This document shows positions 46,593 to 64,000 of a DNA stretch of 64,000 nucleotides, in pieces. The notes under the pieces were generated by a model. It saw only the letters and a program-made list of their open reading frames with translations, was not told where the DNA came from and searched no databases. The DNA is taken from the NCBI RefSeq assembly GCF_024298765.1, contig NZ_CP101210.1. The stretch is one strand, 5' to 3'. Position 1 is the first letter of the stretch. Each line of letters begins with the position of its first letter. This DNA comes from Escherichia coli (lineage in GTDB: Bacteria > Pseudomonadota > Gammaproteobacteria > Enterobacterales > Enterobacteriaceae). Position numbers and translations under genes: made by a program.

Positions 46593-46624
46593 TGGTGGAG
46601 CTGGCGGGAGTTGAACCCGTGTCC
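46593..46624 (-). other. att core: duplicated 3' end of tmRNA (ssrA), 32 nt, no tmRNA body
   Basis: Reverse strand reads GGACACGGGTTCAACTCCCGCCAGCTCCACCA, one mismatch to the remembered E. coli ssrA 3' terminus; upstream sequence does not continue as ssrA. Confidence 0.7.
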
Positions 46625-47050
46625 ATAGTTATGTAATTCATTGAATTTAAATAGCCAAATATTGTTGATTTTACAAGCGGCTCTTTTGCGGAACTTTTTC
46701 TGTCCTGTTACTGTCTTACTATTTATTTTAAAATAGTTTCATTTGGAATTAATGGTTTGTGGTTGCAGTTTCGGAGATAGATAGCATTTTTTGCTAAAAA
46801 ATATTTTTATAAAAAATGTGTGTAAAAATGATGTTATGCACAGATTTATGCACAGAGGCTTTGTGATAAACCAGATTGTTTTGGATAAGTTTGTTTTTTT
46901 GTGATTTGTCAACAATATTATTGACTCTTGTTACTAAAGTGAGTGTTTTCTAAGGTGGTCAGAAGTTGTCCCTTCATGTAATCTTATTAGCCATAAAGAA
47001 CAAAAAATAATTCAACATCATTACCAACTATTTGTAAGATAAGGTTTTTA

Positions 47051-47866
47051 ATGTTGCAGCCAGCAAAAAAAGCATCAGTTATTAGCGCGCGGCTAACGAA
47101 ATACCTCAAAGATGGAGTGAGGATTGATGACTTTAGCTTTAGAAGGATGTTACGTGAGATTGAAGCACTTAGAGATCCTGTCTCTGAGGACTATCTTTTA
47201 GCGTTGGTCTATGGTGCACATGGCCAAGTGAATGAGGCGATAGGCTTCTTTGAGCGTTCCTTGCAGGTATGCCATAATGAGGTTGTTGCAAAGAATTTTC
47301 TTGTTTTCTTGTCAGATTACGGTACGTTGAAGAAAAGCTTTGAAACAAGCATTAAGCTTGCTGAAAGCTTCATATCCCCGTTTATTTATCTTCAAGCTTA
47401 TGAAAACTCCCTCTTTATGGGGAAGATGGCGTTGGCGGAGAAGTATTTCCAGTCATACTCTAAATTGTTCGGAGATAAGGAGCCTGAAAAAATGGACAAC
47501 AATCTTGATGAAGTTGTTTCCCAGGTCGAATCCTTTAAGCAACGTGCCGATCTTTCTGGTTTAGAATATGAACTTATTTTCAATAATGTAGCCAATGTCA
47601 TGGATTCTCAGAAGGTTCATCTTTCGGGAATGCGTTTTTATAATATTTCGGAAGAGAAAGTGAATGCGATTGTATTCATGACAAAGTCTTCTGATGCTGA
47701 ACAAATCGCTGATATGAATATTGAGCTTGCTTTTTCAATGGCTGAGCACGATTGTTTAGTCGGTAAAGATTTTGCTGTTTGGTTTGAATGTAAAGACACA
47801 CATATTGAGCAGAATGCTATCTCCGAATTAGGTCTGATTACCCGGAGGGTTGCACATGCCGGTTAA
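47051..47866 (+). CDS. Hypothetical protein, gene 1 of a two-gene cargo operon between att core and int
   Basis: 271-aa ORF, about 40 percent GC by eye, no TM, no recognizable catalytic motif; stop overlaps the start of the next ORF. Confidence 0.6.
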   Translation: MLQPAKKASVISARLTKYLKDGVRIDDFSFRRMLREIEALRDPVSEDYLLALVYGAHGQVNEAIGFFERSLQVCHNEVVAKNFLVFLSDYGTLKKSFETSIKLAESFISPFIYLQAYENSLFMGKMALAEKYFQSYSKLFGDKEPEKMDNNLDEVVSQVESFKQRADLSGLEYELIFNNVANVMDSQKVHLSGMRFYNISEEKVNAIVFMTKSSDAEQIADMNIELAFSMAEHDCLVGKDFAVWFECKDTHIEQNAISELGLITRRVAHAG

Positions 47867-48239
47867 TAGTCAAGATTTTCTCGGTTTTGCAAAAGACTGT
47901 CATCAACGTAATGACGAAATCGGCTATCGAAATGCTATAGCAAGATCCTACTATGGCGCTTACCATCATGTCTTGCCTTGTATGGTAAACGGGCCGAAAG
48001 ACAGTCATCAGGGGCTAATCAATTATTTGCAGGGCGATGCTTCAAGAGGAAGTGAAGTATATGAAGCTAGATATCTAAAAGGGATTAGTTTTATCCTGAG
48101 TCAACTTAAAGCTCAGAGGATTGTTGCAGACTATCGACTTGATCAATCGGTCACTTCTAAACAGTCTGAAGTTGCGATTCTAACAACTGAGAGGCTCTTT
48201 GCTAAGTGTACGGAAATGCTTAAATCGAGAGCCTCCTAA
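47856..48239 (+). CDS. Hypothetical protein, gene 2 of the cargo operon (unverified HEPN-like R-x6-H motif)
   Basis: ATG at 47856 preceded by SD ggaggg; about 127 aa; motif RSYYGAYHH; terminator hairpin aaagccacttaagtggcttttttt immediately after. Confidence 0.55.
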   Translation: MPVNSQDFLGFAKDCHQRNDEIGYRNAIARSYYGAYHHVLPCMVNGPKDSHQGLINYLQGDASRGSEVYEARYLKGISFILSQLKAQRIVADYRLDQSVTSKQSEVAILTTERLFAKCTEMLKSRAS

Positions 48240-48252
48240 TTGATAAAGCCAC

Positions 48253-49425
48253 TTAAGTGGCTTTTTTTGTGATATTGCTGGTCGTATTACCGTCATATTC
48301 CTTTAAATATAAACCATAATGACGAAATAACATTTCCGGCCCTTTATGCCCCATTTGAGCTGCAAGCCAAAACAGGTTTGCTCCCCGGCTGATATGGCGG
48401 GTGGCGAATGTATGCCTAGTTTGATATGGATTTCTGTAACGAATACCTGCTTTTCGCAATGTTGGCACCCATGCTTTTTTCCTGATTGCATCAGCACTTG
48501 CCCAAGGCTTATTGGTCTTTGGATCTTCAAAGACAGTAGTATCCTTCATGAATGTAAATGGCTTCTGATTTATCAGCGCCAACATTGCCTCTTCTGTCAG
48601 TTCAACTTTCCGAGTACCTGCTTTTGTCTTTGTCCCTTTGATAACACCGACAACACTTGCGCTCTGGACATGGGCAGTTTTTCCAACAAAGTCGATATCA
48701 CGCCATCGAAGGGCACATAATTCAGAACTACGCAGGCCTGTATGTATAGCGAACCGGAACAGATTTTCCCATTGTTTGTTTCCGGCTGCTGCTAGTAATG
48801 CATCAACTTCTGCTGGTGATAGCGGATCAACTACGTAGCTGCTTTCTGCTTCTGACTTATCACTTTGGTAGCGCGAAGCTGTTACTAACGATACGGGGTT
48901 AATTTGAAGTACCCCATCGGTCACGGCTTCATCAAGTGCTGACCGCAGGAAAGATAACTGGTTGCGAATTGTTTTTAAGGTCGTTTTCTGATTTTGAATC
49001 CACGCTTTCAGGGTTGCTGGTGTTAATTCACTTGCAGGGCAAATGTGAAGTGAGGCTAACGCACTACGGCATTTTTTATAGCCACCAATCGTAGAGGGTG
49101 AAAGTTTTCTTGTTTCGCAGATTTCAAGATATTCGTCCAGGTACATCTTTACCGTTTTGCCTGCAGCAGCATTACCAAAAATTTTCAAACGAGCAGAACG
49201 GGGAAAATATTCTGCATAAATGAATGTTCCCCTTTCGATCTTATTATGGATTTCGCCGAGTGTACGCTCGGCGTATTTAATGTTCTTTGGTGTTACTTCC
49301 AGATTGGAAAGCGGCTCACGACATCTAACTCCTTTGTAGGTGAAAGTTATATTGATCGTTTCTCCCTGGCGGTGTTTCCTGATTGTTACGCCGCGCGGTA
49401 GTTTGAGCAGTTTTGTCTGGCCCAT
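48253..49425 (-). CDS. int: Phage integrase (tyrosine recombinase)
   Basis: 390-aa ORF with N-terminal arm-binding-like domain and C-terminal catalytic region (RHTFATRH ... LFRHYGLY). Confidence 0.9.
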   Translation of the reverse strand: MGQTKLLKLPRGVTIRKHRQGETINITFTYKGVRCREPLSNLEVTPKNIKYAERTLGEIHNKIERGTFIYAEYFPRSARLKIFGNAAAGKTVKMYLDEYLEICETRKLSPSTIGGYKKCRSALASLHICPASELTPATLKAWIQNQKTTLKTIRNQLSFLRSALDEAVTDGVLQINPVSLVTASRYQSDKSEAESSYVVDPLSPAEVDALLAAAGNKQWENLFRFAIHTGLRSSELCALRWRDIDFVGKTAHVQSASVVGVIKGTKTKAGTRKVELTEEAMLALINQKPFTFMKDTTVFEDPKTNKPWASADAIRKKAWVPTLRKAGIRYRNPYQTRHTFATRHISRGANLFWLAAQMGHKGPEMLFRHYGLYLKEYDGNTTSNITKKAT

Positions 49426-49592
49426 TTTGCAACCTCACTAAGATCAATCCACCTCTCCTTAACGCCTTCAACCTTTAAAACCTGAACACCTTCACGCCAA
49501 ACACCGCGCTGTACACGTTTGTTTATTGCTTCAGGAGTTTCGCCAGTTTCTTTGCAATAAGTTGAGATAGGAACACAATCGAGGTTCAGCAT
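49386..49592 (-). CDS. Excisionase-like small DNA-binding protein
   Basis: Small ORF overlapping the int start; start placed at MLNLD with SD GGAG; position typical for xis. Confidence 0.5.
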   Translation of the reverse strand: MLNLDCVPISTYCKETGETPEAINKRVQRGVWREGVQVLKVEGVKERWIDLSEVAKWARQNCSNYRAA

Positions 49593-49633
49593 ACGTTTCT
49601 CCATTATCCCGTCTGCACACGGGAGCAACATTA

Positions 49634-50524
49634 TTAACGAATAGTGTCGTTACTTTGAAGTACAGCAAATGCCATTAATACTTCTAAAGTATATCTTCTA
49701 TAAAATTTAACAAAACCAACATAGAAAACATAGACGAAGAAAAAGCTAAGCATTATTGAAAGTAAACTATAAAGATAATCACTATGAGTACATAATCGAT
49801 AAATAAAGGTTGGAACTGATACCCAAAATGAAATTATAAAGATTAAACATATGTTTCTGCAAAAACCATATAATGCAACATAGTTTTGAATTTTTGTTTG
49901 ATGTTGTTTTGAAAACTCATAAACATAATGATATGCCAATCTGAAGAGATCATCATCAAGTCCGTTTTTATCTTGTAATAATTGGCGATTTGTTATGAAC
50001 TTTTTCTCATAACCTTCTTTGATCATTAACCATGTTGTATTAGCTAAATGAAATGGTAGAGATTGAGAATAACATAGTTTTTGTGTTATAAAATCCCATA
50101 GTATTATTGGGCATAATACGCATTTGATTATGCGATTCTTTATTTTTGTTTTTTTATCAGCGCTTCTCTCATCGCATGATGGGCTACAAATGCTTTCTGA
50201 GGTATCTATCAATTTTTTAAATAGATATTTGGAAGGATATCCTAATTCTTTATTCATGTATTTTTCGATAAAAAATGCTGACGTGATAGAAATAAAATGT
50301 CCAGCTATATAAGATATAATAACTATTGAAGCGTAGTTCAAAATGCCAAAGATTTGACTTTGACCTCTGAGCAATTCACTTAAGTCAATAACAATATCTA
50401 GATCGAATGTCAAACCACAGAAATACATTAATAGGATAAAAAAACCACCTGGTATTAAATATCCAAGAAAGTCATAGAATGAGAATGGATTTTGATTCAT
50501 TGTTGCTCTCCAATAATTTTTCAA
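49634..50524 (-). CDS. Hypothetical polytopic membrane protein (very AT-rich cargo gene)
   Basis: 296-aa ORF with hydrophobic segments at both ends; roughly 30 percent GC by eye; sits between xis and the YfdR-like gene. Confidence 0.6.
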   Translation of the reverse strand: MKNYWRATMNQNPFSFYDFLGYLIPGGFFILLMYFCGLTFDLDIVIDLSELLRGQSQIFGILNYASIVIISYIAGHFISITSAFFIEKYMNKELGYPSKYLFKKLIDTSESICSPSCDERSADKKTKIKNRIIKCVLCPIILWDFITQKLCYSQSLPFHLANTTWLMIKEGYEKKFITNRQLLQDKNGLDDDLFRLAYHYVYEFSKQHQTKIQNYVALYGFCRNICLIFIISFWVSVPTFIYRLCTHSDYLYSLLSIMLSFFFVYVFYVGFVKFYRRYTLEVLMAFAVLQSNDTIR

Positions 50525-50608
50525 TTTGTAATATAACCTATATCTATATGTTAATAAATTACTTATATGTTCTTTTATGGCAGAGTTTGAATTCGTACGT
50601 GCTGATTT

Positions 50609-51145
50609 TTACGACTCAGTTAACTCTTTAAAGCGTTCCATAAACATCCCATAGGTATGGCCTGGCGACAGTGGAATAACTTTGAACATCTCTGTTGCCG
50701 GGATACCTTCCAGTACGGGCCAGAAAGAGCCATCATCAAGCCCGAGATCGCGGCGTTCGGTTGCCAGCATGATGAGATCGGCATATTTCACGGGCGTACT
50801 CATAACCGGGGGTAACCCGTATTTCTCACGGATTACGGCGTCTATTTTTTCTTCCATCCGTTTATAGTCAGGAAGAAGGCGTTTCAGTGGAGCCGGGATG
50901 TCCTGGCAATACGCTTCTGTTGCATCATGCATTAACGCTTCAAAAGCAAATTCCTGCGGTACCAGCTGGCTGCAAAGCACCGCATGTTGGGCGACGCTGT
51001 AGAAGTGTGAAAGATGGCCGGCAAAGCGACAGATATTTGAAAGGGAAACCGCGATATCGTTAATATCGATGTTGTCTTTATTTATCCTGTCATAATAAAA
51101 ATGTTTCCCGGAAAAAGTTTTAATAAATGACATTTTGTTCTCCAC
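50609..51145 (-). CDS. HD-domain phosphohydrolase (YfdR-like 5'-deoxynucleotidase family)
   Basis: 178-aa ORF with H...HD motif (AQHAVL ... LMHDATEAY); same size as CPS-53 YfdR. Confidence 0.7.
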   Translation of the reverse strand: MENKMSFIKTFSGKHFYYDRINKDNIDINDIAVSLSNICRFAGHLSHFYSVAQHAVLCSQLVPQEFAFEALMHDATEAYCQDIPAPLKRLLPDYKRMEEKIDAVIREKYGLPPVMSTPVKYADLIMLATERRDLGLDDGSFWPVLEGIPATEMFKVIPLSPGHTYGMFMERFKELTES

Positions 51146-51261
51146 GTTATATGCGCTGCACCGCGCTGAATTTTGGTTAAAGAAAACCCTCGCCTTCAGG
51201 CGATTATTGAGTCAATTACGTTTCCATAAATGCCCCCGCAGGGGCATTTGCAGTAATGAAA

Positions 51262-52086
51262 TCAGGCGGTGAAAGTCCCAATAAAGGTTTCTACTTTGCT
51301 GTCCTTGAATTTCTCAACAAGCAGATCACGAAATTCGTTAGCCATATCTTCCTGCACCGCTTCCAGCTGAATAATGCGCAGAACCAGTACAGGACGATCG
51401 CCAGTGATAATGCTGAGGCGTAATTTAAACGGACGTTCTTTCAGACCTTCAAACGGAACGCATTTAAACTCAAATGCCACTGGCATAATGTCTTTGGTCT
51501 TCGCTTCGACAGACTCCATCAGGGAGCGTTTGCCGCTGAAGTCATTATCTTCAAAATCAGCAGTCTGGTTTGCTTCAATCGTGATTTTACGGACCGCCGC
51601 AGCCGCTTTTGTTGCCTGAATGGTGTCACCATTAGCATCAAAGCCCACAAGATAGTCGGCCCAGTCTTCGATCCATTCTGCCAGTGATTTCTGGGAGTTA
51701 CGCTCTCCATTAACAGACAACAGAGCAGAGAACGGTGCTGTCTTTTTCAGTTTGAGAGTGGCGGTGTTATCTGCGTGACCTGGTTCATCAATAGTACCCA
51801 GGTTAAGCACACTGACGGCACGCATATTATCAGCATCGATAAAGCAGCGGGTGCCTTCATCTGCAAGATCTTTAGAATAACGGGTAAAGTCATCAATGCT
51901 GGCAGTGGAAAGCGCACCACGGAAACGGAAGCGATTTAAATTAAATTTTTCCAGATCATGAATGCGGAAATTCTCAGGCAATGCCACAGCATCGGCACCA
52001 ATCTTACTGATAATTTCATTAACACCCTGAGCAGAAATAAGAGCATGGATTTGATTAATTGCGGTTGCGTCTAAGTTCTGAGACAT
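51262..52086 (-). CDS. Phage protein, YfdQ-like (DUF2303 family)
   Basis: 274-aa ORF adjacent to the YfdR-like gene; size and neighbourhood match CPS-53 YfdQ (from memory). Confidence 0.6.
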
Positions 52087-52151
52087 AATAAGTCCTCACT
52101 ATATAAAGATATTCAGTGATGAGATAAATAATCAGTTAATTAAGAACGATA

Positions 52152-52514
52152 TTAATGACCTGCTGCGCGGAGTTTTCCGTCAGGCTCACCGGCAAGAGTC
52201 AGTAATTGTCCCTGGTCTTCCTGCAGAATAGTCAGGCGACCACCGCGATTGACATACATCGGCGTTTCGGTGGTGTCTTCTTCGGAAATTTTCCCACGGT
52301 TAGTCGGGCGAACATATGAGAGTTTGTGTTTGATTTTCACACGGTTCTCATCAAATGGTTCGATTTCCAGGTTGAGTGAGACCTTACCTTTGGTTTTCGT
52401 GTTCATCACACCGGAAGCGACTTCACTGAGAACTGCGCCGATTTTGGTTTCAAATACGCCGCCGTCCAGCTCCCCGATAAATGCCTGCACATCAGTACTG
52501 CGTTCGCTAGCCAT
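52152..52514 (-). CDS. Phage hypothetical protein, possibly YfdP-like
   Basis: Start placed at MASERSTDVQ (ATG ~52514) with SD AGGAG; about 120 aa; the longer ORF-track extension runs through an 18-bp inverted repeat. Confidence 0.55.
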   Translation of the reverse strand: MASERSTDVQAFIGELDGGVFETKIGAVLSEVASGVMNTKTKGKVSLNLEIEPFDENRVKIKHKLSYVRPTNRGKISEEDTTETPMYVNRGGRLTILQEDQGQLLTLAGEPDGKLRAAGH

Positions 52515-52857
52515 TTTGCTGCTCCTCATCATATCGACCCTGCAAGGCCGATTAGTTTCTCCACAAAACAGAGAAGAACACCTGCGGTGGCAGCCGCCCG
52601 GATGGATTGGGTTATGAGCCCGTCGTCCGATGATGTTCTTCTCTGTTTTGTAAAAAGAGCGGTACCAGCCGGAAGCAAGTGTACAAACTGGTACCGCCAA
52701 AGCAGTGGCTGTTGTGGTGACCGGTGCTGATCTCCGGCTTGCGGTTATTTCAGACTCTCACGGGCGTTTAATTGCCCCGCCGAACAGCTCTTTTCCGCAA
52801 TAGCTGCAATGTCTTTCGCGCATCAGCCTGCGCATTCACCACAACTCTAAAAACAAA

Positions 52858-52971: not shown

Positions 52972-53625
52972 TCAAAAATCCATTATTACTTGTTTGACAA
53001 GACCAACTATTCTGCAGTTCTCACCGCATTCAATAGTTTTATAGTTAGGATTTAGTGGGACGAGATACCTGTTCGGCCAGTCCTCAACAAATTTTTTGAG
53101 TGTCGCTTCTTGCCCACCATTGATATGGGCAACAACGATTTTTCCGTTAATACACTCTGTATCAATAATATCTGGCTCTACGATAACGATAGAACCTTCT
53201 GGTATCGATGGTGAGCCGAGGGGATTGGTCATTGAATCACCACGGACCCGTAGTGCAAATGCCATTTCTGATACAAGGGCGGTAGTATAAACCCACTCTT
53301 CAGCATCTTCTTTCCTGACACCAGGCTCCGTCATTGTCCATGAACCCGCCTGAACCCACGAGATGAGGGGGACTTTTTTAACTGCGAATATTTCAGGTTT
53401 TAGATTTATCTTTGGTTCAGGCGAGCCTTTTCCGCTAACAAGCCACAGAGGATCGCATTTAAGTGCGTTGGCTAGGGCTTGAAGGTTGGCTCCATTTGGT
53501 TGGTAGTCGTCCTTTTCCCATCCAGTAACCGTGACACGGTTCACACCAGTCAAATCAGCCAGTGCTTGTTGTGTCAGGTTCAGTTCTTTTCGCCTTTGGC
53601 GAATACGATCACTCATGTTCATCAT
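52972..53625 (-). CDS. CI-like prophage repressor (HTH + S24 LexA-type peptidase domain)
   Basis: 217-aa ORF; N-terminal HTH (LNLTQQALADLTGVNRVTVTGWE), C-terminal GDSM serine motif; divergent from the cro-like gene. Confidence 0.88.
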   Translation of the reverse strand: MMNMSDRIRQRRKELNLTQQALADLTGVNRVTVTGWEKDDYQPNGANLQALANALKCDPLWLVSGKGSPEPKINLKPEIFAVKKVPLISWVQAGSWTMTEPGVRKEDAEEWVYTTALVSEMAFALRVRGDSMTNPLGSPSIPEGSIVIVEPDIIDTECINGKIVVAHINGGQEATLKKFVEDWPNRYLVPLNPNYKTIECGENCRIVGLVKQVIMDF

Positions 53626-53689
53626 GTAGGCAATCCTACCACATGCTCATGTAGGATTCTTGACATTGATATGTTGGATATCCTACATT
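53625..53689. promoter_or_regulatory. OR-like operators and PR/PRM region
   Basis: Palindromes tgtaggcaatcctacc (53625-53640), tgtaggattcttgaca (53650-53665), tgttggatatcctaca (53672-53687); TTGACA -35 at 53660-53665; first operator abuts the cI start codon. Confidence 0.6.
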
Positions 53690-53720
53690 TCTGCTTAACG
53701 TAATTTAACGGGAGACAGAA

Positions 53721-53918
53721 ATGCGGAAATCCGACGTGATTAATTATTTCGGCGGAGTTTGTAAAACCGCCGAAGCCCTAGGTATTAAGCATCCGTCTGT
53801 TTCAGAGTGGCCTGAGATTATTCCTGAAGGCCGAGCGTACCAGTTAGAAAAAATTACTAACGGGAAACTGAAAGTTGACGTGTCTTTATATCAAAAGACT
53901 AACAGTGCTGCGGCATAA
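53721..53918 (+). CDS. Cro-like small DNA-binding protein
   Basis: 65-aa ORF divergent from the repressor with operators between them. Confidence 0.7.
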   Translation: MRKSDVINYFGGVCKTAEALGIKHPSVSEWPEIIPEGRAYQLEKITNGKLKVDVSLYQKTNSAAA

Positions 53919-53945: not shown

Positions 53946-54530
53946 GTGGGTAAAGAACCTGAATGGAAAGTTGATAAACAACCAGCATGGCTGGTGGCAG
54001 CAATACGAAGAACGATTGCTGATTTACCTCATGGCTATGAGGAAGCAGCAGAAATTCTTGGTTTGTATAAATCTGATGATATCACCCCAGCAAAAGATCA
54101 ATTGCATAACAGACTGCGTAGCGGTGGGGATCAAATTTTTCCACTTGAGTGGGCCATGGTTTTACAGGATGCCAGTGGTACCAGGCATGTAACAGATGCA
54201 ATAGCCCGTCGTAGTAATGGGGTGTTTGTGCCGCTGGTGGTCATTGATGACATTGACAATGGTGACATTAATCAGCGGCTGATGGAGTCAATAGAATGGA
54301 TTGGCAAGCATTCCCAGTACTTACGCAAGGCAACTGCTGATGGAGTTATTGACCAAGCTGAGCGTGAGCAAATCGAAGAGAACAGCTACCAAGTAATGGC
54401 GAAGTGGCAGGAGCATTTAACACTGTTATTTCGTGTTTTTTGTGCGCCGGAAAAGAGTAACGCCCGCGAGTGTGCAGCTCCGGGCGTCGTGGCGTCGATT
54501 GCTTCTGGTTGTGGAGAAACTAACGCATGA
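53946..54530 (+). CDS. Phage regulatory protein, CII-like (tentative)
   Basis: 194-aa ORF directly after cro in the cII position; family assignment from position and vague similarity only. Confidence 0.45.
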
Positions 54531-54865
54531 ACAGTTTAACAACACACTACCGTCGTTCGCAACTGATTGCGCTTCCTGTACCGGGTGGAAAAGCGAAGGT
54601 GGAGTATTGCTATGCAGTGAATGTACCAGGTGATAGGGAAATTGTAACCCACAGCTTTGCAGAGTGGGCTGTGGGTGATTTCAACCGGCAGAAGGAGACA
54701 GTCCTTTGCGACAAGTTAACCGCTGGTTCAAAGATCACTACGGAGTGCCCGTCAGAGTCATTCGTTGGGAGCCGGAAACACAACGGGTTATCTACCTCCG
54801 TGAAGGCTATGAACATGAATGCTTCAGTCCGCTCGAACAGTTTCGTCGTAAATTCAGGGAAATAG
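54527..54865 (+). CDS. Hypothetical phage protein (C-terminal part doubtful)
   Basis: 112-aa ORF starting at the ATGA overlap with the upstream stop; the last ~50 aa are low-complexity and overlap ORF 54706-54918 out of frame. Confidence 0.35.
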
Positions 54866-54918
54866 AGGTCGGTCATGAGCCTGTTAATGACATCCCAGCC
54901 CATTGTGATAAATCGTGA
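54706..54918 (+). CDS. Hypothetical phage protein (TTG start)
   Basis: 70-aa ORF with strong SD gaaggaga about 7 nt upstream of TTG; protein-like composition; overlaps the O-like gene start. Confidence 0.45.
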
Positions 54919-55867: not shown

Positions 55868-55869
55868 TC

Positions 55870-55962
55870 ATGAGTCTTTTGAATGAAGTTCAGAAATTCA
55901 TTGAAGCCCATCCGGGGTGTACTTCCGGAGACATTGCGGATGCTTTTTACGTGGGGGCTTAA
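55870..55962 (+). CDS. Small ORF (30 aa) translationally coupled between the O-like gene and the methyltransferase
   Basis: ATG at 55870 preceded by SD aggggg; stop overlaps the methyltransferase ATG (TAATG). Confidence 0.3.
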   Translation: MSLLNEVQKFIEAHPGCTSGDIADAFYVGA

Positions 55963-56615
55963 TGAGTAATAAATATTGTCAGGCGCTGGTGGAGCTGCGG
56001 AACAAACCATCCCATGAACTGAAGGAGGTGGGCGATCAGTGGCGCACGCCGGACAGCATTTTCTGGGGAATTAACACCTTGTTTGGCCCGTTTGTTCTGG
56101 ATCTGTTCACTGACGGTGATAACGCCAAATGTGCCGCGTATTACACGGCGGAAGACAACGCGCTGGCGCATGACTGGTCAGAACGCCTTGCGGAGCTTAA
56201 AGGTGCTGCCTTTGGCAATCCCCCATACAGTCGCGCCAGTCAGCATGAGGGGCAATACATCACCGGCATGCGTTACATCATGAAACATGCCAGTGCCATG
56301 CGTGATAAGGGCGGGCGCTATGTTTTCCTGATCAAAGCTGCCACCAGCGAAGTGTGGTGGCCGGAAGATGCGGACCATATTGCTTTTATTCGCGGGCGTA
56401 TTGGTTTTGAACTGCCTGCCTGGTTTATCCCGAAAGATGAGAAGCAGGTGCCGATAGGCGCTTTCTTCGCTGGTGCTATTGCTGTTTTTGACAAGACCTG
56501 GAAGGGACCGGCAATCAGCTACATCGGGCGCGATGAACTTGAGGCATGTGGTGAGGCCTTTCTGGCGCAGGTTCGCCAGCAGGCAGAAAAACTGGTCAGG
56601 GAGATGGTGGCATGA
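55962..56615 (+). CDS. Phage DNA N6-adenine methyltransferase (Dam-like)
   Basis: About 218 aa from MSNKYCQALVEL; motif IV FGNPPYS. Confidence 0.85.
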   Translation: MSNKYCQALVELRNKPSHELKEVGDQWRTPDSIFWGINTLFGPFVLDLFTDGDNAKCAAYYTAEDNALAHDWSERLAELKGAAFGNPPYSRASQHEGQYITGMRYIMKHASAMRDKGGRYVFLIKAATSEVWWPEDADHIAFIRGRIGFELPAWFIPKDEKQVPIGAFFAGAIAVFDKTWKGPAISYIGRDELEACGEAFLAQVRQQAEKLVREMVA

Positions 56616-57001
56616 AGCTGATCCTGCCTTTTCCGCCCAGCGTGAACACGTACTGGCGACACCCCAACAAAGGGGCGTTTGCTGGTAAGAGCCTGATAAG
56701 CGCGGCGGGGCGAAAATTCCAGAGCGCGGCGTGCGCAGCAATAGTTGAGCAGTTACGTCGTCTGCCGAAACCAACGTCGGCACCTGCTTCAGTGGAGATC
56801 GTGTTGTTTCCTCCGGATAACCGGATCCGCGATCTGGACAACTATAACAAGGCGCTGTTTGACGCCCTGACCCACGCGGGTGTGTGGGAAGACGACAGTC
56901 AGGTGAAAAGAATGCTGGTGGAGTGGGGACCGGTTATCCCGGGAGGGAAGGTCGAGATCACTATCAGTAAGTACGAGAAAACGGCGGGTGCAGCCGCCTG
57001 A
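56612..57001 (+). CDS. rusA: Holliday junction resolvase RusA-like
   Basis: 129-aa ORF; RusA-like pattern (PPSVNTYWRH ... DLDNYNKALFDALTHAGVWEDDSQV). Confidence 0.85.
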   Translation: MKLILPFPPSVNTYWRHPNKGAFAGKSLISAAGRKFQSAACAAIVEQLRRLPKPTSAPASVEIVLFPPDNRIRDLDNYNKALFDALTHAGVWEDDSQVKRMLVEWGPVIPGGKVEITISKYEKTAGAAA

Positions 57002-57020
57002 TTAAGAGGAGAAACGAAGT

Positions 57021-57818
57021 ATGAATAATCTGATGGTCATTGATGGTATTGAAGTTCGTCGTGATGCTTATGGTCGTTACAGCCTGAACGATCTGCACAG
57101 GTCTGCCGGTTCTCTGGATAAGCATAAGCCTGCATTCTGGCTCCGCAATGAGCAAACTGAACGTTTAATAAGCGAGTTGCAGATTTGCAACTCGGTCAAT
57201 ATAGAGCCAGTTAACGTTATTCGTGGCGGAAATAACCAGGGGACGTATGTCTGCAAAGAACTGGTGTATGCCTATGCAATGTGGATCAGCCCGTCATTCC
57301 ATCTGAAGGTGATCCGTACTTTCGACATGGTAACCAGCGCACCGGAAAAATTATCCGGACAGGCTGCTGACAAGATGCAGGCTGGTGTGATCCTGCTGGA
57401 CTTTATGCGCCGGGAATTAAACCTGTCTAACTCATCAGTGCTTGGAGCCTGTCAGAAGCTTCAGGAGGCTGTTGGCTTACCGAATCTGGCACCGCGCTAT
57501 GCCATTGATGCTCCTGCTGATGCACTCGATGGCTCAAGCCGCCCGACACTGTCACTGAGTGCACTGCTGAAGCAGTATGGTATCCGCCTGACAGCTAATC
57601 AGGCATATCACCAGATGGCGAAGCTGGGGATCGTTGAACAACGTGAACGATACAGCCGCACTGCGATTAACAACATCAAAAAATTCTGGTCGCTGACGGC
57701 GAAAGGCTGCATGTTCGGCAAGAACATCACCAGTCCCGCAAATCCGCGCGAGACGCAGCCGCATTTCTTCGAATCCCGATTCCCTGAGCTGTTAAAGCTG
57801 CTCGATACCGTTCATTGA
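57021..57818 (+). CDS. KilA-N domain protein (antirepressor-like)
   Basis: 265-aa ORF; N-terminal KilA-N-like region (VRRDAYGRYSLNDLHRSAG ... KPAFWLRNEQTERLI). Confidence 0.7.
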   Translation: MNNLMVIDGIEVRRDAYGRYSLNDLHRSAGSLDKHKPAFWLRNEQTERLISELQICNSVNIEPVNVIRGGNNQGTYVCKELVYAYAMWISPSFHLKVIRTFDMVTSAPEKLSGQAADKMQAGVILLDFMRRELNLSNSSVLGACQKLQEAVGLPNLAPRYAIDAPADALDGSSRPTLSLSALLKQYGIRLTANQAYHQMAKLGIVEQRERYSRTAINNIKKFWSLTAKGCMFGKNITSPANPRETQPHFFESRFPELLKLLDTVH

Positions 57819-57819
57819 G

Positions 57820-58815
57820 GTGACCGTGAGAGCACTACTGACCCCTGAAATTGCCCCGCGTATGGGGATCGTATTGTTCAGACCAGGTTCAGAGCTGATG
57901 CCCTTGTTTATGCAGGGGCGTGTCCTGCTGGAGCCTGAGCCGGAACGTTATTCATCTTTCGCCAGTGGTGCCGTTCCGGCGGCATCACAACCGCTGGCGG
58001 ATGATCCTGCCGTTCGGGCCGTGTTCCGCAATGAGGCAGTGATCCGTCGTGCTGGTGGCGTGGAATGTCTTGAAAGCTGGTTACTTCGTGAAAAAGGCTG
58101 CCAGTGGCCTCATTCCGGCTGGCACAGCGAGAACATGACAACAATGCGACACGCTCCGGGCGCAATCCGTCTGTGCTGGCACTGCGATAACCAGCTGCGC
58201 GATCAGTTCACGGAACGGCTGGAATCAATGGCAACGGATAACTGTGCCCGCTGGGTGTTGTCTGTTGTGCGTCGGGATCTCGGTTTTGATGACAGTCATG
58301 TTGTGACAATGCCGGAACTGTGCTGGTGGCTGATTCGTAATGATCTGGCGGATGCCTTACCGGAAAGTGCAGCCCGTAAGGCACTGAGATTACCGAAGCC
58401 TGTTGTGCCGTCTGTTACCCGGGAAAGTGACCTTGTGCCTTCGGTTCCTGCCACCAGCATCATCCAGGATAAGGCGAAAAAGGTGCTGGCGCTGAAAGTG
58501 GATCCGGAGTCGCCGGAGTCTTTTATGTTACGCCCAAAACGTCGCCGCTGGGTTAATGAAAAGTACACGCGCTGGGTTAAGACACAGCCGTGTGCATGTT
58601 GTGGAAAGCCCGCTGATGATCCCCACCACCTGATAGGTCACGGTCAGGGTGGAATGGGAACAAAAGCGCATGACCTCTTTGTGTTGCCTTTGTGCAGAAA
58701 GCATCACGACGAGCTGCATGCGGATACCGTGGCATTTGAAGAGAAGTATGGCTCTCAGCTGGAGCTGATATTTCGTTTTATCGATCGTGCGCTGGCAATT
58801 GGCGTATTGGCGTAA
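57820..58815 (+). CDS. DUF968-family phage protein (YdfU-like)
   Basis: 331-aa ORF with GTG start; C-terminal Cys/His-rich region (QPCACCGKPADDPHHLIGHG ... CRKHHDELH); usual position between rusA and Q. Confidence 0.65.
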   Translation: MTVRALLTPEIAPRMGIVLFRPGSELMPLFMQGRVLLEPEPERYSSFASGAVPAASQPLADDPAVRAVFRNEAVIRRAGGVECLESWLLREKGCQWPHSGWHSENMTTMRHAPGAIRLCWHCDNQLRDQFTERLESMATDNCARWVLSVVRRDLGFDDSHVVTMPELCWWLIRNDLADALPESAARKALRLPKPVVPSVTRESDLVPSVPATSIIQDKAKKVLALKVDPESPESFMLRPKRRRWVNEKYTRWVKTQPCACCGKPADDPHHLIGHGQGGMGTKAHDLFVLPLCRKHHDELHADTVAFEEKYGSQLELIFRFIDRALAIGVLA

Positions 58816-58828
58816 GTGGAGAACGAGC

Positions 58829-59581
58829 ATGAACCTTGAAGCCTTACCAAAATATTACTCCCCAAAATCTCCAAAATTGAGCGATGACGCACCGGCGACA
58901 GGCTCTGGTGGTTTAACAATTACGGATGTAATGGCTGCGCAGGGGATGGTGCAGTCGAAAGCACCGCTTGGGTTTGCCTTATTCCTGGCAAAAGTTGGTG
59001 TTCAGGATCCTCAGTTTGCGATTGAAGGTCTGCTCAATTACGCGATGGCACTGGATAACCCGACATTGAATAAATTGAGTGAAGAAACCCGGCTACAGAT
59101 CATTCCTTACCTTGTGAATTTTGCCTTTGCTGATTATTCCAGGTCTGCGGCAAGTAAGGCTCGCTGTGAGCATTGTGCTGGTACTGGATTTCATAATGTA
59201 TTGCGCGAGGTGGTGAAACACTCCAGAAGCGGGGAATCTGTTATCAAGGAAGAGTGGGTGAAGGAACTATGTCAGCATTGTCATGGTAAGGGAGAAGTCA
59301 GCACAGCGTGCAGAGGGTGTAAGGGTAAAGGTATTGTCCTGGATGAAAAAAGAACCCGGCTTCATGGTACGCCTGTTTATAAGATTTGTGGGCGTTGCAA
59401 TGGTAACCGTTTTAGCCGTTTACCAACCACACTGGCGCGGCATCATGTCCAGAAGCTGGTACCAGACCTGACGGATTATCAGTGGTACAAAGGATATGCA
59501 GATGTCATTGATAAACTGGTTACAAAGTGCTGGCAGGAAGAAGCATATGCAGAGACACAATTGAGAAAAGTGACAAGATAA
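58829..59581 (+). CDS. Late gene antiterminator Q
   Basis: Start at MNLEALPKYY with SD ggaga; zinc-finger-like CEHCAGTG ... CQHCHGKG ... CRGCKGKG ... CGRCNG; followed by late promoter/terminator region. Confidence 0.8.
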   Translation: MNLEALPKYYSPKSPKLSDDAPATGSGGLTITDVMAAQGMVQSKAPLGFALFLAKVGVQDPQFAIEGLLNYAMALDNPTLNKLSEETRLQIIPYLVNFAFADYSRSAASKARCEHCAGTGFHNVLREVVKHSRSGESVIKEEWVKELCQHCHGKGEVSTACRGCKGKGIVLDEKRTRLHGTPVYKICGRCNGNRFSRLPTTLARHHVQKLVPDLTDYQWYKGYADVIDKLVTKCWQEEAYAETQLRKVTR

Positions 59582-60068: not shown

Positions 60069-60455
60069 ATGTCCGATCCGATTTCCGGTACTGGGCTGGC
60101 TGGTGGTGCCCTGACGGGTGCCAGTGTTTATGGACTGCTGACCGGAACTGATTACGGCGTTGTATTTGGCGCATTTGCAGGGGCTGTATTCTACATAGCA
60201 ACAGCAGCAGATCTGAGTGCATCGCGTCGACTGGCATATTTTATCGTGTCATATATTGCCGGGATTCTTTGCTCTGGGTTGGTTGGCTCCAAGCTGGCGA
60301 ACTTGACCGGATACAGTGATAAACCTCTGGATGCTATTGGTGCCGTAATCGTCTCTGCTTTAGCCGTTAAAATCCTGACGTTCCTGAATAATCAGGATAT
60401 CGGCTCGCTGGTGGCGCTCATAACGCGCCGGGGAGGTTCAGGTGGAGCTAAATGA
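60069..60455 (+). CDS. Putative holin (multi-TM small membrane protein)
   Basis: 128-aa ORF with about three hydrophobic helices; first gene of the lysis cassette; SD agaggggg. Confidence 0.6.
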   Translation: MSDPISGTGLAGGALTGASVYGLLTGTDYGVVFGAFAGAVFYIATAADLSASRRLAYFIVSYIAGILCSGLVGSKLANLTGYSDKPLDAIGAVIVSALAVKILTFLNNQDIGSLVALITRRGGSGGAK

Positions 60456-60723
60456 CCCGACAGCAACTATAAATGCGCTGTTATGTGCTTGTGTTGTTAT
60501 TACTCTGATGTTTTATCGTCGTGGTGATTCGCGGCATCGTCCTTGGGTTTCACGTTTAGCCTGGCTGATTACTGTTACATACAGTGCTGTTCCGTTGGCC
60601 TATCTCTGTGGGATTTATCCTCATTCCTCATGGCCCATTATCGTGGCGAACACTATTTTTCTTTCCGTGCTGGTGGCCGTCAGAGGCAACGTTGCACGTC
60701 TGGTTGATCATCTGAGGCACTAA
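60442..60723 (+). CDS. Putative second holin/antiholin-like membrane protein
   Basis: 93-aa ORF with three hydrophobic segments; overlaps neighbours at both ends. Confidence 0.55.
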   Translation: MELNDPTATINALLCACVVITLMFYRRGDSRHRPWVSRLAWLITVTYSAVPLAYLCGIYPHSSWPIIVANTIFLSVLVAVRGNVARLVDHLRH

Positions 60724-61337
60724 TGAACCAACAATTATTTCAAAAGGCGGCTGGTATTAGCGCCGGGCTGGCTGCGCGCTGGTTTCCGCACATTGATGCG
60801 GCGATGAAGGAATTCGGCATTACAGCACCAGCGGATCAGGCAATGTTTATCGCTCAGGTAGGCCATGAGTCGATGGGGTTTAGCGCCGTAGTTGAAAATT
60901 TTAACTACACACCATCTGCGCTGGTGGCGACGTTCGGAAAGAGGATCACACAGCAGCAGGCTGATGCCCTTGGCAGAACATCCGGACATGCAGCTCGTCA
61001 GGATGCTATTGCCAATCTGGTGTATAGCAACCGACTGGGTAACAAAGCACCAGGTGATGGCTGGAAATATCGTGGTAGAGGATTAATTCAAATCACTGGC
61101 CTCCATAATTATCGCATCTGTGGCGCGGCGCTGAAGTTAGATCTGGTGACTTCACCTGAACAACTGGAACAGGAACTACAGGCTGCGCGCTCAGCTGCAT
61201 GGTTCTACACCTCTAAAGGTTGCATGATCTACGGTGCCGATATTAACCGTGTTACGCGCATCATTAACGGCGGTCTGAACGGTATTGAGGATCGTAAGGT
61301 CCGATACAACAAGGCGCGGGCGGCGCTGCTGGTATGA
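60723..61337 (+). CDS. Endolysin, glycoside hydrolase family 19 (chitinase-like)
   Basis: 204-aa ORF; GH19-like catalytic region (FIAQVGHESMGF ... YRGRGLIQITG); ATGA overlap with upstream gene. Confidence 0.8.
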   Translation: MNQQLFQKAAGISAGLAARWFPHIDAAMKEFGITAPADQAMFIAQVGHESMGFSAVVENFNYTPSALVATFGKRITQQQADALGRTSGHAARQDAIANLVYSNRLGNKAPGDGWKYRGRGLIQITGLHNYRICGAALKLDLVTSPEQLEQELQAARSAAWFYTSKGCMIYGADINRVTRIINGGLNGIEDRKVRYNKARAALLV

Positions 61338-61726
61338 AGATGAGTTATTGGGCGCTCATTTTAACGTTTATTGCTTGTGTCGCTGGTGGTCTTGTCTGGT
61401 CAGCGAATCACTATCATGGAAAGTTTCTGGAGGAGCAGAAGCGTGCTGATGCTGCGGAACAGCGAGCTGATTCTACTGAGGCTATCACCGCGAATGTTCT
61501 GCGTACTATGGCAATAACGAACATCATTCAGGAGGCGAATCAACATGCAAAACAGCAGATCGCACTGGAGTCACAGAGAACCCAGGAAGATATCAAAGTG
61601 GCTGTTGCGGATGATGATTGTGCTTCACGTCCTGTGCCTGCTGCCGCTGCTGACCGGTTGCGGAAGTACGCGAACAGTTTACGTCCAGGTTCCGGTAGTT
61701 CCGTTACCAGCCAGCCTGACGGCTGA
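61334..61726 (+). CDS. Rz-like inner-membrane spanin (i-spanin)
   Basis: 130-aa ORF; N-terminal TM then coiled-coil periplasmic domain; follows the endolysin. Confidence 0.75.
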   Translation: MKMSYWALILTFIACVAGGLVWSANHYHGKFLEEQKRADAAEQRADSTEAITANVLRTMAITNIIQEANQHAKQQIALESQRTQEDIKVAVADDDCASRPVPAAAADRLRKYANSLRPGSGSSVTSQPDG

Positions 61727-61880
61727 AACCCCTCAGCCTGATTTACCTGATCATTTTACGTGGGGCTCGAGCTTAGATCTGAATGTCGCCTTGTTGTCTG
61801 CATTGGCGCAGTGTAATACCGATAAAGCTGACATCAGAAGGATTGAAGTTGAGCGTGGTCACATCATGCAAAAAAAATGA
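61611..61880 (+). CDS. Rz1-like outer-membrane lipoprotein spanin (o-spanin), overlapping Rz in another frame
   Basis: Start at MMIVLHVLCLLPLLTGCGS (lipobox LTGC); proline-rich; overlaps the Rz 3' end. Confidence 0.7.
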   Translation: MMIVLHVLCLLPLLTGCGSTRTVYVQVPVVPLPASLTAETPQPDLPDHFTWGSSLDLNVALLSALAQCNTDKADIRRIEVERGHIMQKK

Positions 61881-61972: not shown

Positions 61973-62293
61973 ATGAAAGATGGTATCTATTTTGTTGTTT
62001 TCAGAAGCAATCAACGTGATTTTGGTAATGGTACCGTAGTTGTCAAAAACAATGCAGTAAATGGCGGAGATTTTGGTTTTACGTATCAGGGAAAAATTGA
62101 CGGTAGCCAACTTATTCTGCGCGTATCGCAGCATGATTTAAATGTCACCTCGGTTTTCCCTGGGGTAAAGAACTTTGAATTGAGTCTTTCTTTGCAGGAA
62201 CGAGGACGTGATTACCTGTTAAATGGATCTGTGGTCGGAATGCCTCAGATGCAAATTTCAATTAGTGCAAAATACATTGGTGATCTGATTTAG
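61973..62293 (+). CDS. GrlR-like (lipocalin-fold) family protein, tentative
   Basis: 106-aa ORF starting MKDGIYFVVFRSN, reminiscent of GrlR-family proteins from memory; followed by terminator aaccgcctccgggcggtttttta. Confidence 0.45.
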   Translation: MKDGIYFVVFRSNQRDFGNGTVVVKNNAVNGGDFGFTYQGKIDGSQLILRVSQHDLNVTSVFPGVKNFELSLSLQERGRDYLLNGSVVGMPQMQISISAKYIGDLI

Positions 62294-62385
62294 TTTATCG
62301 AGATGATAATTGAACCGCCTCCGGGCGGTTTTTTATTGCCATTTCTATGGTCTGTTCCATCGTAATAACTTAAAGGGAAGCATTA

Positions 62386-62736
62386 ATGCCGCCACGAACC
62401 CCGAAAGCCTGCCGTGTTCGCGGCTGCCGCCATACCACTACTGACCCTTCAGGCTACTGCGAAAGCCACAAAAGCGAAGGCTGGAAGCAATACAAACCTG
62501 GACAATCCCGTCATCAGCGCGGCTACGGTTCGAAGTGGGACAGTATCCGCGCTCGTGTTCTGAAGCGTGACAAAGGCCTGTGTCAGTTATGTCTGCGTGC
62601 TGGTGTGGTGCGTGAGGCGAAAACTGTTGACCACATCATCCCTAAAGCGCATGGCGGCACTGATGCCGACTGTAATCTGCAGAGTCTGTGCTGGCCGTGT
62701 CATAAGGCGAAGACGGCCCGTGAACGGTTGAAGTGA
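62386..62736 (+). CDS. HNH endonuclease (terminase-associated)
   Basis: 116-aa ORF; zinc/HNH motifs CRVRGCRH ... CQLCLRAG ... VDHIIPKAHGGTD ... NLQSLCWPCH; directly upstream of terminase. Confidence 0.85.
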   Translation: MPPRTPKACRVRGCRHTTTDPSGYCESHKSEGWKQYKPGQSRHQRGYGSKWDSIRARVLKRDKGLCQLCLRAGVVREAKTVDHIIPKAHGGTDADCNLQSLCWPCHKAKTARERLK

Positions 62737-62861
62737 TAATGATTCTCAACTGCCTGAGGGGAGGGGCGGGTCAAATCCCTGCGGCCTGACGTCTTCCGGA
62801 CTGCCCGCCCCATCGTTTTTTTATACCCGCGAAAAATGAAATTTAACCAGGAGTGCCGCAT

Positions 62862-63356
62862 ATGGCTGGAACGGCGGGGCGTTCCGGGCGTCGCCCCAAG
62901 CCAACGGCGCGCAAGGCGCTGGCCGGAAACCCCGGCAAGCGAGCCCTGAATAAAGATGAACCTGTTTTTACGCCCATCAAAGGTGTTGAGCCACCGGAGT
63001 GGTTCGCTGAAGAAGATCTCCCTCTCGCCACGATCATGTGGCAACTGACAACCAAAGAACTCTGCGGTCAGGGCCTGCTGTGCGTGACTGACCTCGCGGT
63101 GCTTGAGCGGTGGTGCGTGGCCTATGAGTTCTGGCGACGTGCCGTGAAAAATATTGCCAGCCAGGGCAACACCATTACCGGTGCAATGGGCGGTATGGTC
63201 AAAAACCCGGAGCTGACCGCCAAGAAAGAACAGGAGTCCGAGATGAGCAGCACGGGGGCAATGCTCGGACTCGACCCCAGCAGCCGCCAGCGTCTGATTG
63301 GCCTGGCGGGGAAGAAGAAAGCCACTAACCCGTTTCTGAAAATCATCGAGTCATGA
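62862..63356 (+). CDS. Terminase small subunit (P27-like family)
   Basis: Start at [14 protein letters not shown]; typical N-terminal basic region; stop overlaps the large-subunit ATG. Confidence 0.8.
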
Positions 63357-64000
63357 GCCGGAAATCTTACCCCAACGTAAATGCTGCCAATCAGTATGCC
63401 CGGGATGTCGTGCGCGGAAAGATTGTTGCCTGCCAGTTTGTGATTCAGGCCTGCCAGCGCCATCTTGATGACCTGATGGCGGAAAAAAGTAAGTCGTTTC
63501 GTTACCGCTTCGACAAGGACCTGGCTGAACGGGCCGCGAAATTTATTCAGCTGTTGCCGCACACCAAGGGTGAGTGGGCATTCAAACGGATGCCCATCAC
63601 GCTGGAGCCGTGGCAGCTATTTGTGATCTGCTGTGCGTTTGGCTGGGTCAATAAAGGCACCCGGTTGCGCCGCTTCCGGGAGGTGTATACCGAAATCCCC
63701 CGTAAGAACGGCAAATCAGCAATCTCTGCCGGTGTTGCCCTGTATTGTTTTGCCTGTGATAACGAGTTTGGCGCGGAAGTGTATTCCGGTGCCACGACAG
63801 AGAAACAGGCGTGGGAAGTCTTTCGCCCGGCGCGACTGATGTGTAAACGCACACCCATGCTGACGGAAGCGTTCGGGATTGAGGTTAACGCCTCAAACAT
63901 GAACCGTCCGGAGGATGGCGCGCGGTTTGAACCGCTGATCGGCAACCCCGGTGATGGTTCATCACCCCACTGTGCCGTGGTTGATGAATATCACGAGCAT
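63353..64000 (+). CDS. Terminase large subunit, 5' part (truncated by window end)
   Basis: Hand-translated [29 protein letters not shown]... with Walker A-like [11 protein letters not shown]; open to the window end. Confidence 0.8.

Follow-up and report, generated by a model that had tools for sequence, protein, structure and literature searches.

We analysed a window of 64,000 nucleotides of Escherichia coli DNA and conclude that its final part, positions 46593-64000, is very probably a temperate lambdoid phage inserted in ssrA, seen from its integrase-proximal end (attR) over its first 17.4 kb. An element integrated into ssrA had been proposed in the initial annotation of this DNA, and the proposal is borne out by an ssrA gene at the far end of the element in relatives, by the unoccupied site in 714 genomes and by the attP of the free phage LLS. 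Prophages and islands at ssrA are textbook knowledge. The finding itself is already known: the same junction occurs in strain CFT073, and the Int/attP family was described for LLS in 2025. In practical terms, what it offers for annotation is an exact boundary, with phage DNA from 46620 at the latest and native DNA resuming, reading leftward, at 46568 at the latest. Coordinates of the features are collected in Table 1.

Table 1. Features around the junction and along the visible part of the prophage
Position	Strand	Feature	Basis
44933..45910	-	glaH (= csiD), chromosomal left flank, outside the element	ORF list; annotated glaH in a 99.7% identical genome
46441..46592	-	native 152-nt ssrA 3′ flank, bacterial B′ side of attR	100% identical to the NC101 unoccupied site
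46593..46624	-	displaced ssrA 3′ fragment (attR core)	alignment to ssrA, shuffles, Rfam fragment match
46625..47050	.	AT-rich non-coding phage arm (P arm) beside the core	sequence
47051..47866	+	cargo gene 1, 271 aa, weak TPR-like matches only	PHROG 17809 (unknown function)
47856..48239	+	cargo gene 2, 127 aa, HEPN-fold protein, overlapping gene 1	homologues' Pfam matches, fold comparison
48253..49425	-, transcribed toward core	tyrosine integrase (Arm-DNA-bind_2, SAM-like, catalytic domains)	Pfam; PHROG 1
49386..49631	-	excisionase (Xis)	PHROG 2917, E=8e-45
49634..52700	-	early-left: 296-aa protein of unknown function, YfdR-like 5′-deoxynucleotidase, YfdQ-like, YfdP-like	PHROGs; relatives' annotation
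52972..53918	.	immunity region	PHROG 4, 811, 409
52972-53625	-	CI-like repressor, 217 aa, HTH + S24/UmuD-like C-terminus, facing the Cro-like gene	
53721-53918	+	Cro-like regulator	
53946..59581	+	early-right: CII-like/YmfL, O-like initiator, DNA methyltransferase (MTase_II), RusA, KilA-N, DUF968/HNH, Q	
58787-59581	+	Q antiterminator	
60069..61880	+	lysis cassette: two holins, endolysin (GH19 per FORC_082 annotation), Rz/Rz1 spanins	
62386..64000	+	packaging start: HNH endonuclease, TerS (P27 family), TerL cut at window end	PHROGs; relatives' annotation

The plus strand at 46593-46624 reads TGGTGGAGCTGGCGGGAGTTGAACCCGtGTCC and matches the reverse-complemented 32-nt 3′ end of E. coli ssrA at 31 of 32 positions: 46593-46619 (27 nt) are identical, position 46620 has A for G (the first base of the T-stem in the RNA sense), and 46621-46624 match again. 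No other match occurs in the window at ≤3 mismatches, and none was obtained in 100 shuffles, which rules out a chance match to the ssrA 3′ end. Neither a tmRNA gene nor a permuted tmRNA was detected in the window by ARAGORN or by Rfam at its gathering threshold; the Rfam tmRNA model gave only a sub-threshold fragment match on the minus strand at 46593-46640 (21 bits, against a gathering score of 47). The near-exact 32-nt copy of the ssrA 3′ end and the lack of a tmRNA body, both described initially, are therefore upheld, and the element has at one end the displaced 3′ fragment of its target gene that forms part of the Islander signature (PMC4383910). Also as described, the core points away from the prophage, and a terminator scan placed an intrinsic-terminator hairpin downstream of it at 46465-46444, on the same minus strand. 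The duplicate as a whole, however, is longer than the 32 nt first given: it spans ~184 bp, made up of the 32 nt of ssrA and ~152 nt of 3′ flank with the terminator, at 94.6% identity. The mismatch at 46620 is common to all four aligned relatives and is the phage-side base. In SFE8, a genome with a tandem array, similarity ends exactly at CCACCA. We infer that the crossover took place within 46593-46619.

The product of a simulated excision is glaH, 683 bp, full ssrA and smpB, and 714 of 5,426 complete E. coli genomes have this arrangement as one unbroken stretch, at 99% identity. In these prophage-free genomes the position therefore holds the whole gene and no orphan 32-mer, so that the proposed junction withstands comparison with them. 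Flanks joined at the core in an unoccupied site, with the flank 100% identical, are a further part of the Islander signature (PMC4383910). The native 152-nt flank in our window has accordingly been parted from ssrA by the insertion. The junction with csiD does differ from that of K-12, as had been stated, but it was not made by the element, since glaH beside ssrA is a common native arrangement found in ~13% of complete E. coli genomes. K-12 has CP4-57 at ssrA, and ~11 kb (ypjA to ygaQ) lie between the end of CP4-57 and glaH, in agreement with the several kb given in the initial annotation. The drop in GC content after csiD was likewise real, from 0.52-0.58 at 41-46 kb to 0.36-0.45 at 46-54 kb, but the low-GC block does not begin at the core: the AT-rich stretch starts by the end of glaH (45911), ahead of the core, and composition alone is thus no marker of the prophage boundary.

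A 32-nt fragment of this kind might instead be the leftover attR of an older, unrelated ssrA island, with the lambdoid prophage using a different attachment site. Tandem ssrA arrays do leave orphan fragments, a CP4-57-like island in SFE8 abuts the same core, and K-12 keeps the 14-nt psaA fragment. However, the phage arm and cargo cassette, present in 43 of the 5,426 genomes as a single copy each, are linked to the core and int in all 43. The left-hand neighbour of the arm and int is one of three (glaH, ypjA or a CP4-57-like island's integrase), and across these flanks similarity begins at 46442 or exactly at 46593. Moreover, deleting the DNA between the two cores recreates the site that is intact in the 714 genomes, and the core also adjoins int in the free phages LLS and phiNP, whose Int is homologous. 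A leftover attR is therefore largely refuted, and we consider it exceedingly improbable.

Insertion of the prophage itself into ssrA is consistent with its integrase. The presence within the element of a tyrosine integrase, with Arm-DNA-bind_2, SAM-like and Phage_integrase domains, is another part of the Islander signature (PMC4383910). At the amino acid level this Int is 92.7% identical to that of Citrobacter phage phiNP (OR565852.1) and 86.9% identical to that of Escherichia phage LLS (PQ299149.1), and it belongs to the ssrA-specific family of these phages, both of which have the core beside int. The Int of LLS, a lambdoid free phage, matches that of an ssrA-integrated prophage, and its attP contains the ssrA 3′ end (PMC12315714, Genome Res 2025). 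The LLS attP region has a flank copy with terminator (85% identical), the ssrA core, one cargo gene, int and xis, in the order of our window. It differs in having an unrelated cargo gene between core and int, in a module whose nucleotide sequence has diverged beyond the reach of megablast, and in a core copy that aligns with ssrA over a somewhat different stretch (29 bp as reported). In phiNP, the int-xis DNA is 83.7% identical, the ssrA core lies ~2.9 kb from int in the same orientation, and the deposited record ends on the core; unlike our element, phiNP comes from another host genus and has an AAA ATPase gene, not a two-gene cassette, in the cargo slot. Whereas a protein-level search for Int relatives reached LLS, phiNP and Kp4866-6, megablast for a deposited phage with the same DNA module returned only phiNP int-xis (84%) and a 58-nt match to LMessi. 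The P arm contains a tandem TTATGCACAGA ×2 at 46834-46856, a candidate arm-type site for Int; it is conserved in E. coli relatives, was not found in LLS or phiNP, and is not significant alone.

Regenerated tDNA and a displaced fragment mark the ends of islands, among whose targets the tmRNA gene shows the strongest enrichment (PMC4383910). CP4-57 of K-12 also targets the ssrA 3′ end, and the 3′ fragment that it leaves behind precedes the same native flank. However, CP4-57 is not lambdoid, its fragment (psaA) is only 14 nt long, and its P4-type IntA has no meaningful similarity to the Int of our window (BLASTP, 24% over 86 residues, E=0.012), which lacks an IntA-like P4-type integrase beside an intact ssrA. 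In addition, intA lies beside the intact ssrA, whereas int in our window sits at the end with the ssrA fragment. As LLS and phiNP show, this is the normal layout for their Int family. The locus illustrates how two unrelated integrase families act on one gene with int placed at opposite ends.

The far end of the element can be seen in relatives. The closest complete genome, NZ_CM142691.1, is 99.7% identical over the junction. In that genome the far end of the same element, 40,674 bp away from the partial core, is an intact ssrA that has the orientation of the fragment and adjoins smpB. CFT073 has the same arrangement, a prophage with the same module ending at ssrA. An intact ssrA at the other end, which the initial annotation had predicted, is thus confirmed in these two relatives, and with it the intact, same-orientation gene of the Islander signature (PMC4383910); our window stops at 64000. 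By analogy, the source strain probably has an intact ssrA at its own far end, outside the window. At no single place in any complete genome of the collection is 46593-64000 covered to 80% or more, which leaves this exact mosaic unsampled and makes its far end an extrapolation. The collection does contain tandem arrays at ssrA, and such arrays are known from tDNA islands (PMC4383910), so that an array might lie between the fragment at 46593 and the intact ssrA, the prophage itself ending at another partial core. We regard this as improbable, given that the glaH-adjacent junctions inspected (NZ_CM142691.1 and CFT073) each show a single element ending directly at ssrA.

The CFT073 prophage, phi-CFT073-smpB, is listed among the curated islands of that strain (c3143-c3206; PMC6315130). 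The integration module of our window is that of phi-CFT073-smpB: the two share the glaH flank, the core, the cargo cassette, int, xis and the yfdRQP early region (98.8% nucleotide identity over 45900-49900), and phi-CFT073-smpB too has ssrA as its insertion site, smpB lies beyond it, and its attL includes a phage-borne copy of the flank and terminator of ssrA. The late genes differ. Those of CFT073 are of the lambda-type siphovirus kind (gpJ, nohA-type terminase), and its immunity region is another one, whereas our window has HNH/P27-type TerS/TerL and a different repressor.

In the reading best supported by these data, the phage attP supplies the final ~30 nt of ssrA as a replacement copy and, as a diverged copy, the ~150-nt 3′ flank and its terminator. 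Such a flank copy with terminator is seen directly in the free phage LLS. Given an attP of this structure, two products would result when strands are exchanged within the 27-nt identity (T-loop to CCA). The first, at the far end outside the window (attL), would be an ssrA that is intact and properly terminated; the second would be the displaced native 3′ end and flank at attR, beside glaH. The phage-borne terminator would then function for ssrA, and the copy of ~150 nt of flank and terminator in attP may have been selected for correct termination and processing of tmRNA in lysogens. The locus thus provides an example of an attP that carries the whole 3′ flank with its terminator, beyond the 3′ end of the gene.

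Genes in the visible 17.4 kb were assigned with PHROGs and Pfam, up to 64000, where the window stops inside the TerL gene. The complete lambdoid order from int to terminase that had been read from the sequence was recovered with these assignments: int-xis, leftward early genes, divergent repressor/cro, cII-like gene, replication, nin-region (RusA), Q, lysis and terminase. The phage body is 99.4% identical to a FORC_082 prophage located between yjjG and prfC, which has a different integrase. The element is a mosaic of an ssrA integration module and a body matching a prophage at another chromosomal site, which is ordinary mosaicism. In relatives that share the packaging module, the heads are of HK97 type and the tails are contractile.

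Cryptic prophages are numerous in E. coli, and with only 17.4 kb visible the element might be a defective or truncated remnant as opposed to a complete, inducible phage. The relatives include damaged copies: the repressor and tape-measure genes are frameshifted in NZ_CM142691.1, as is Q in the FORC_082 relative. However, no recognisable gene in the visible part is interrupted, and their ORFs, among them CI (217 aa), Q, int and xis, have the lengths expected. Furthermore, relatives have a full gene set of 40.7 kb, and LLS and phiNP, phages of the same Int family, are viable. A cryptic remnant is thus rather unlikely, though far from negligible, and the prophage is probably still active.

The cassette at 47051-48239 lies in the cargo slot between core and int. 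Its two genes move as a pair in other prophages: in those of Enterobacter they adjoin a different integrase, and in those of Yersinia they lie between Q and the lysis genes, both of which are classic moron positions. Searched with their own sequences, neither cargo protein (gene 1 or gene 2) has a significant match in Pfam, NCBIfam, PADLOC or, by sequence, the PDB. LLS gene 31 was considered as a relative of cargo gene 1, having the same length (271 aa), yet it is unrelated. For cargo gene 2, 10 of 35 homologues match Pfam HEPN (PF05168) at E≤0.001, and the best PDB fold matches of its AF2 model (pLDDT 93.6) are HEPN proteins (2hsb, TM 0.70); its assignment to HEPN is made only through homologues and fold comparison. 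With respect to a HEPN-MNT module, the HEPN fold is thus present by PF05168 in homologues and by the AF2 fold, and the 271-aa protein has neither a nucleotidyltransferase match nor a PADLOC family that would make it the MNT partner. We tentatively suggest, as a possibility taken jointly with selection on the attP flank copy and with the odds against it, that the pair is an undescribed prophage-encoded anti-phage defence or TA-like module. The two-gene HEPN cassette is uncharacterised and the sole mildly new item at the locus, and it is a reasonable candidate for a defence-system screen.

The prophage begins beside glaH (csiD) at a displaced 3′ end of ssrA, the tmRNA gene. Compared with the 363-nt ssrA of the closest complete genome, this core is the reverse complement of the last 32 nt with a single mismatch at position 46620, such that, along the window, 27 exact nt are followed by the mismatch and 4 matching nt. 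The match is unique in the 64-kb window when up to 3 mismatches are allowed, and occurred in none of 100 dinucleotide-preserving shuffles of the window. The initial annotation had described a 32-nt copy of the ssrA 3′ end without a tmRNA body, and this holds: 31 of 32 positions match, ARAGORN called no tmRNA gene in the window, only the serV-argV tRNA cluster, and Rfam reported no tmRNA there at its gathering threshold. At a permissive threshold, the Rfam tmRNA model gave a 21-bit fragment match on the minus strand at 46593-46640. The terminator hairpin proposed beyond the core was located on the same strand as the ssrA fragment. The proposed drop in GC content is also real, but it begins already in the native glaH-ssrA intergenic region and does not coincide with the core. 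Outside the prophage, GC is 0.42-0.44 at 30001-31000 and 35001-37000, well under the neighbouring chromosome. ARAGORN also called a minus-strand tRNA-Arg(tcg) at 16492-16563, which overlaps tRNA-Arg(acg) on the plus strand (16472-16548); the minus-strand call has no support from Rfam and is probably an artefact.

Features of the int-proximal junction and the visible part of the prophage
Feature	Position	Strand	Remarks
ssrA 3′ fragment (core)	46593-46624		plus-strand sequence TGGTGGAGCTGGCGGGAGTTGAACCCGtGTCC
Intrinsic-terminator hairpin	46465-46444	minus	strong; downstream of core
Two genes of unknown function	47051-47866, 47856-48239	plus	first genes right of core
Tyrosine integrase (int)	48253-49425	minus	Arm-DNA-bind_2, SAM-like and catalytic domains
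Excisionase, then leftward early genes (YfdR/Q/P-like)			right of int
CI-like repressor facing Cro-like gene			after leftward early genes
CII-like, O-like, methyltransferase, RusA, KilA-N, DUF968, Q			in this order after Cro-like gene
Two holins, endolysin, Rz/Rz1			after Q
HNH endonuclease, terminase small subunit, large-subunit start			right end of window

We searched 5,426 complete E. coli genomes by megablast with positions 45900-49900. The whole junction is present in a small set, including NZ_CM142691.1 (99.7%) and all CFT073 assemblies (98.8%). The intact ssrA and second core expected at the far end are both found in NZ_CM142691.1. In that genome the element spans the DNA between the partial core and a second one 40,674 bp away; the second core is the 3′ end of an intact ssrA, annotated and lying on the same strand, and smpB, ratA, bamE and recN follow. 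In CFT073, the core, cargo, int, xis and yfdRQP module adjoins glaH as in the window, and the prophage, catalogued as phi-CFT073-smpB (PMC6315130), ends at ssrA-smpB. The predicted excision product, window 45600-46592 fused to ssrA and smpB, occurs as one uninterrupted stretch, with 99% identity, in 714 of the 5,426 genomes, NC101 among them; hence an unoccupied site with a full ssrA exists, and the 683 bp between glaH and ssrA are the native arrangement rather than a product of insertion. In K-12, ssrA is occupied by CP4-57, and a further ~11 kb (ypjA, pinH, ypjBC, ileY, ygaQ) precede glaH, in agreement with the several kb stated in the initial annotation. That element and junction differ from those of K-12 was correct, but the proximity of csiD to ssrA is itself native. 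The K-12 segment is absent at 45911-46441, between the ssrA flank and glaH, and the same 714 complete genomes have this short form.

One phage arm and int were found beside three distinct left flanks: glaH in this window and CFT073; ypjA in strain EcE.CRE.COL, with similarity to the window from 46442; and the integrase of a CP4-57-like island in the tandem array of strain SFE8, with similarity exactly from 46593. We conclude from these alignments that the prophage boundary is defined three times over by independent left flanks; the boundary called initially was accurate, as were the observation and interpretation behind it. The P arm (AT-rich non-coding phage DNA, 46625-47050) and cargo cassette occur in 43 of the 5,426 genomes, as a single chromosomal copy in each. 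The SFE8 array, at ssrA (L002 4606-8834), has one displaced 32-nt core, flanked on one side by the integrase of the CP4-57-like island, which shares 48% identity with IntA, and on the other by this phage's integrase.

The att anatomy was established by aligning attB (the unoccupied site; NC101), attR (the int-proximal junction; window) and attL (the far end; NZ_CM142691.1). Over 184 nt, window 46442-46624 aligns with the attL region at 94.6% identity, making the attL/attR repeat ~184 bp by alignment rather than the 32 nt first reported; its coordinates are 46441-46624 in the window, 42171-42354 in L001 and 1815-2005 in L016 (comparison loci). Identity to the unoccupied site is 100% for the window's own 152-nt flank (46441-46592), 93.5% for the phage-side copy at attL and 83% for the copy in CFT073. 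Because the difference at 46620, the only one in the core, is common to every relative aligned, we assign it to the phage copy. On the opposite side, the first difference lies 25 nt past CCA, and together the two bound the crossover, as read from sequence, to 51 bp, 46569-46619. The SFE8 array, a target without the native flank, narrows this to 27 nt, CGGGTTCAACTCCCGCCAGCTCCACCA, which spans the T-stem/T-loop through CCA.

The element is an integrase-mediated island in a tRNA/tmRNA gene, a class recognised by its ends, one being a regenerated gene and the other a displaced fragment, with the tmRNA gene as its most enriched target (PMC4383910). A CP4-57-type element was rejected, since IntA is unrelated to the window Int. 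In CP4-57, intA adjoins intact ssrA and the fragment left in K-12 measures just 14 nt, whereas int here is at the fragment end; hence two unrelated integrase families use ssrA, with int oppositely placed. The prophage feature is ordinary, with examples already in the literature and among annotated genomes.

Among deposited phage genomes, Citrobacter phage phiNP and Escherichia phage LLS encode integrases 92.7% and 86.9% identical to the window Int, respectively. A 2025 description of LLS presents it as lambdoid, with an Int matching that of an ssrA-integrated prophage and an attP (the free-phage site) that includes 29 bp copied from the ssrA 3′ end (PMC12315714). Its layout around attP is like the window's, with an ssrA-flank copy (85% identical, ending in a terminator hairpin) followed by the core, one cargo gene, int and xis. 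The phiNP record ends on the core, and its cargo slot, between core and int, holds an AAA ATPase gene instead. In this Int family, as LLS shows directly, attP carries a diverged 152-nt ssrA 3′ flank with a terminator hairpin (copies 83-93%). All phage-borne copies retain the hairpin (predicted -17 to -21 kcal/mol); in the K-12-type bacterial allele it is preserved by a compensatory change from CCCGC/GCGGG to CCCAC/GTGGG. Given the att-site anatomy and the attP layout in LLS and phiNP, regeneration of ssrA from a phage-borne 3′ end and flank is the best-supported mechanism. Int-mediated exchange within the T-loop-to-CCA identity would join the ssrA body to the phage-supplied 3′ end, flank and terminator. 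This end would keep tmRNA expressed, and we infer that the phage terminator serves ssrA; the native 3′ end, flank and terminator would be displaced to the int-proximal junction, which is that in the window. Within the AT-rich phage arm, a perfect tandem of TTATGCACAGA (x2, 46834-46856) is a candidate arm-type Int site; E. coli relatives share it, CFT073 with one mismatch, and it was not found in LLS or phiNP.

The assigned genes follow the lambdoid order from int to terminase that had been proposed, and the prophage is seen up to 64000, where the window end cuts the terminase large-subunit gene. The stretch from yfdR to terminase (window 50614-64000) has 99.4% identity to a prophage of strain FORC_082 (L006 7001-20386). 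That prophage sits between yjjG and prfC, and both its integrase and its int-proximal genes are different, a pattern suggestive of a recent exchange of the integration module. The CFT073 prophage has the window's att/int module but lambda-like late genes, and in none of the complete genomes does a single locus cover at least 80% of the visible prophage. On sequence comparison, we conclude that the phage body has a mosaic make-up. HK97-type heads and contractile tails occur in relatives that share the window's packaging genes, so that 'lambdoid' applies to the early and regulatory regions and need not extend to the virion. A small plus-strand gene between Rz/Rz1 and the HNH endonuclease (61973-62293) is a GrlR-family regulator according to relatives' annotation; its product scores 40 bits against NCBIfam, far under the 205-bit cutoff, and the gene is possibly a moron.

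The cargo genes, between core and int in the window (47051-48239), are conserved as an overlapping pair encoding 271 aa and 127 aa, which adjoins a different integrase in Enterobacter prophages and lies between Q and the lysis genes in Yersinia prophages. Copies of the pair outside the window are at 4244-5387 (L009-L011) and 4241-5387 (L012-L014). PF05168 matches by 10 of 35 homologues, together with an AF2 model (pLDDT 93.6) whose best PDB matches are HEPN proteins, indicate that the 127-aa protein has a HEPN fold. The 271-aa partner has weak TPR-like matches and no recognisable domain; it gave no nucleotidyltransferase match and is not an MNT (minimal nucleotidyltransferase). The pair matches no PADLOC system, and is plausibly a candidate defence or toxin-antitoxin-like cassette.
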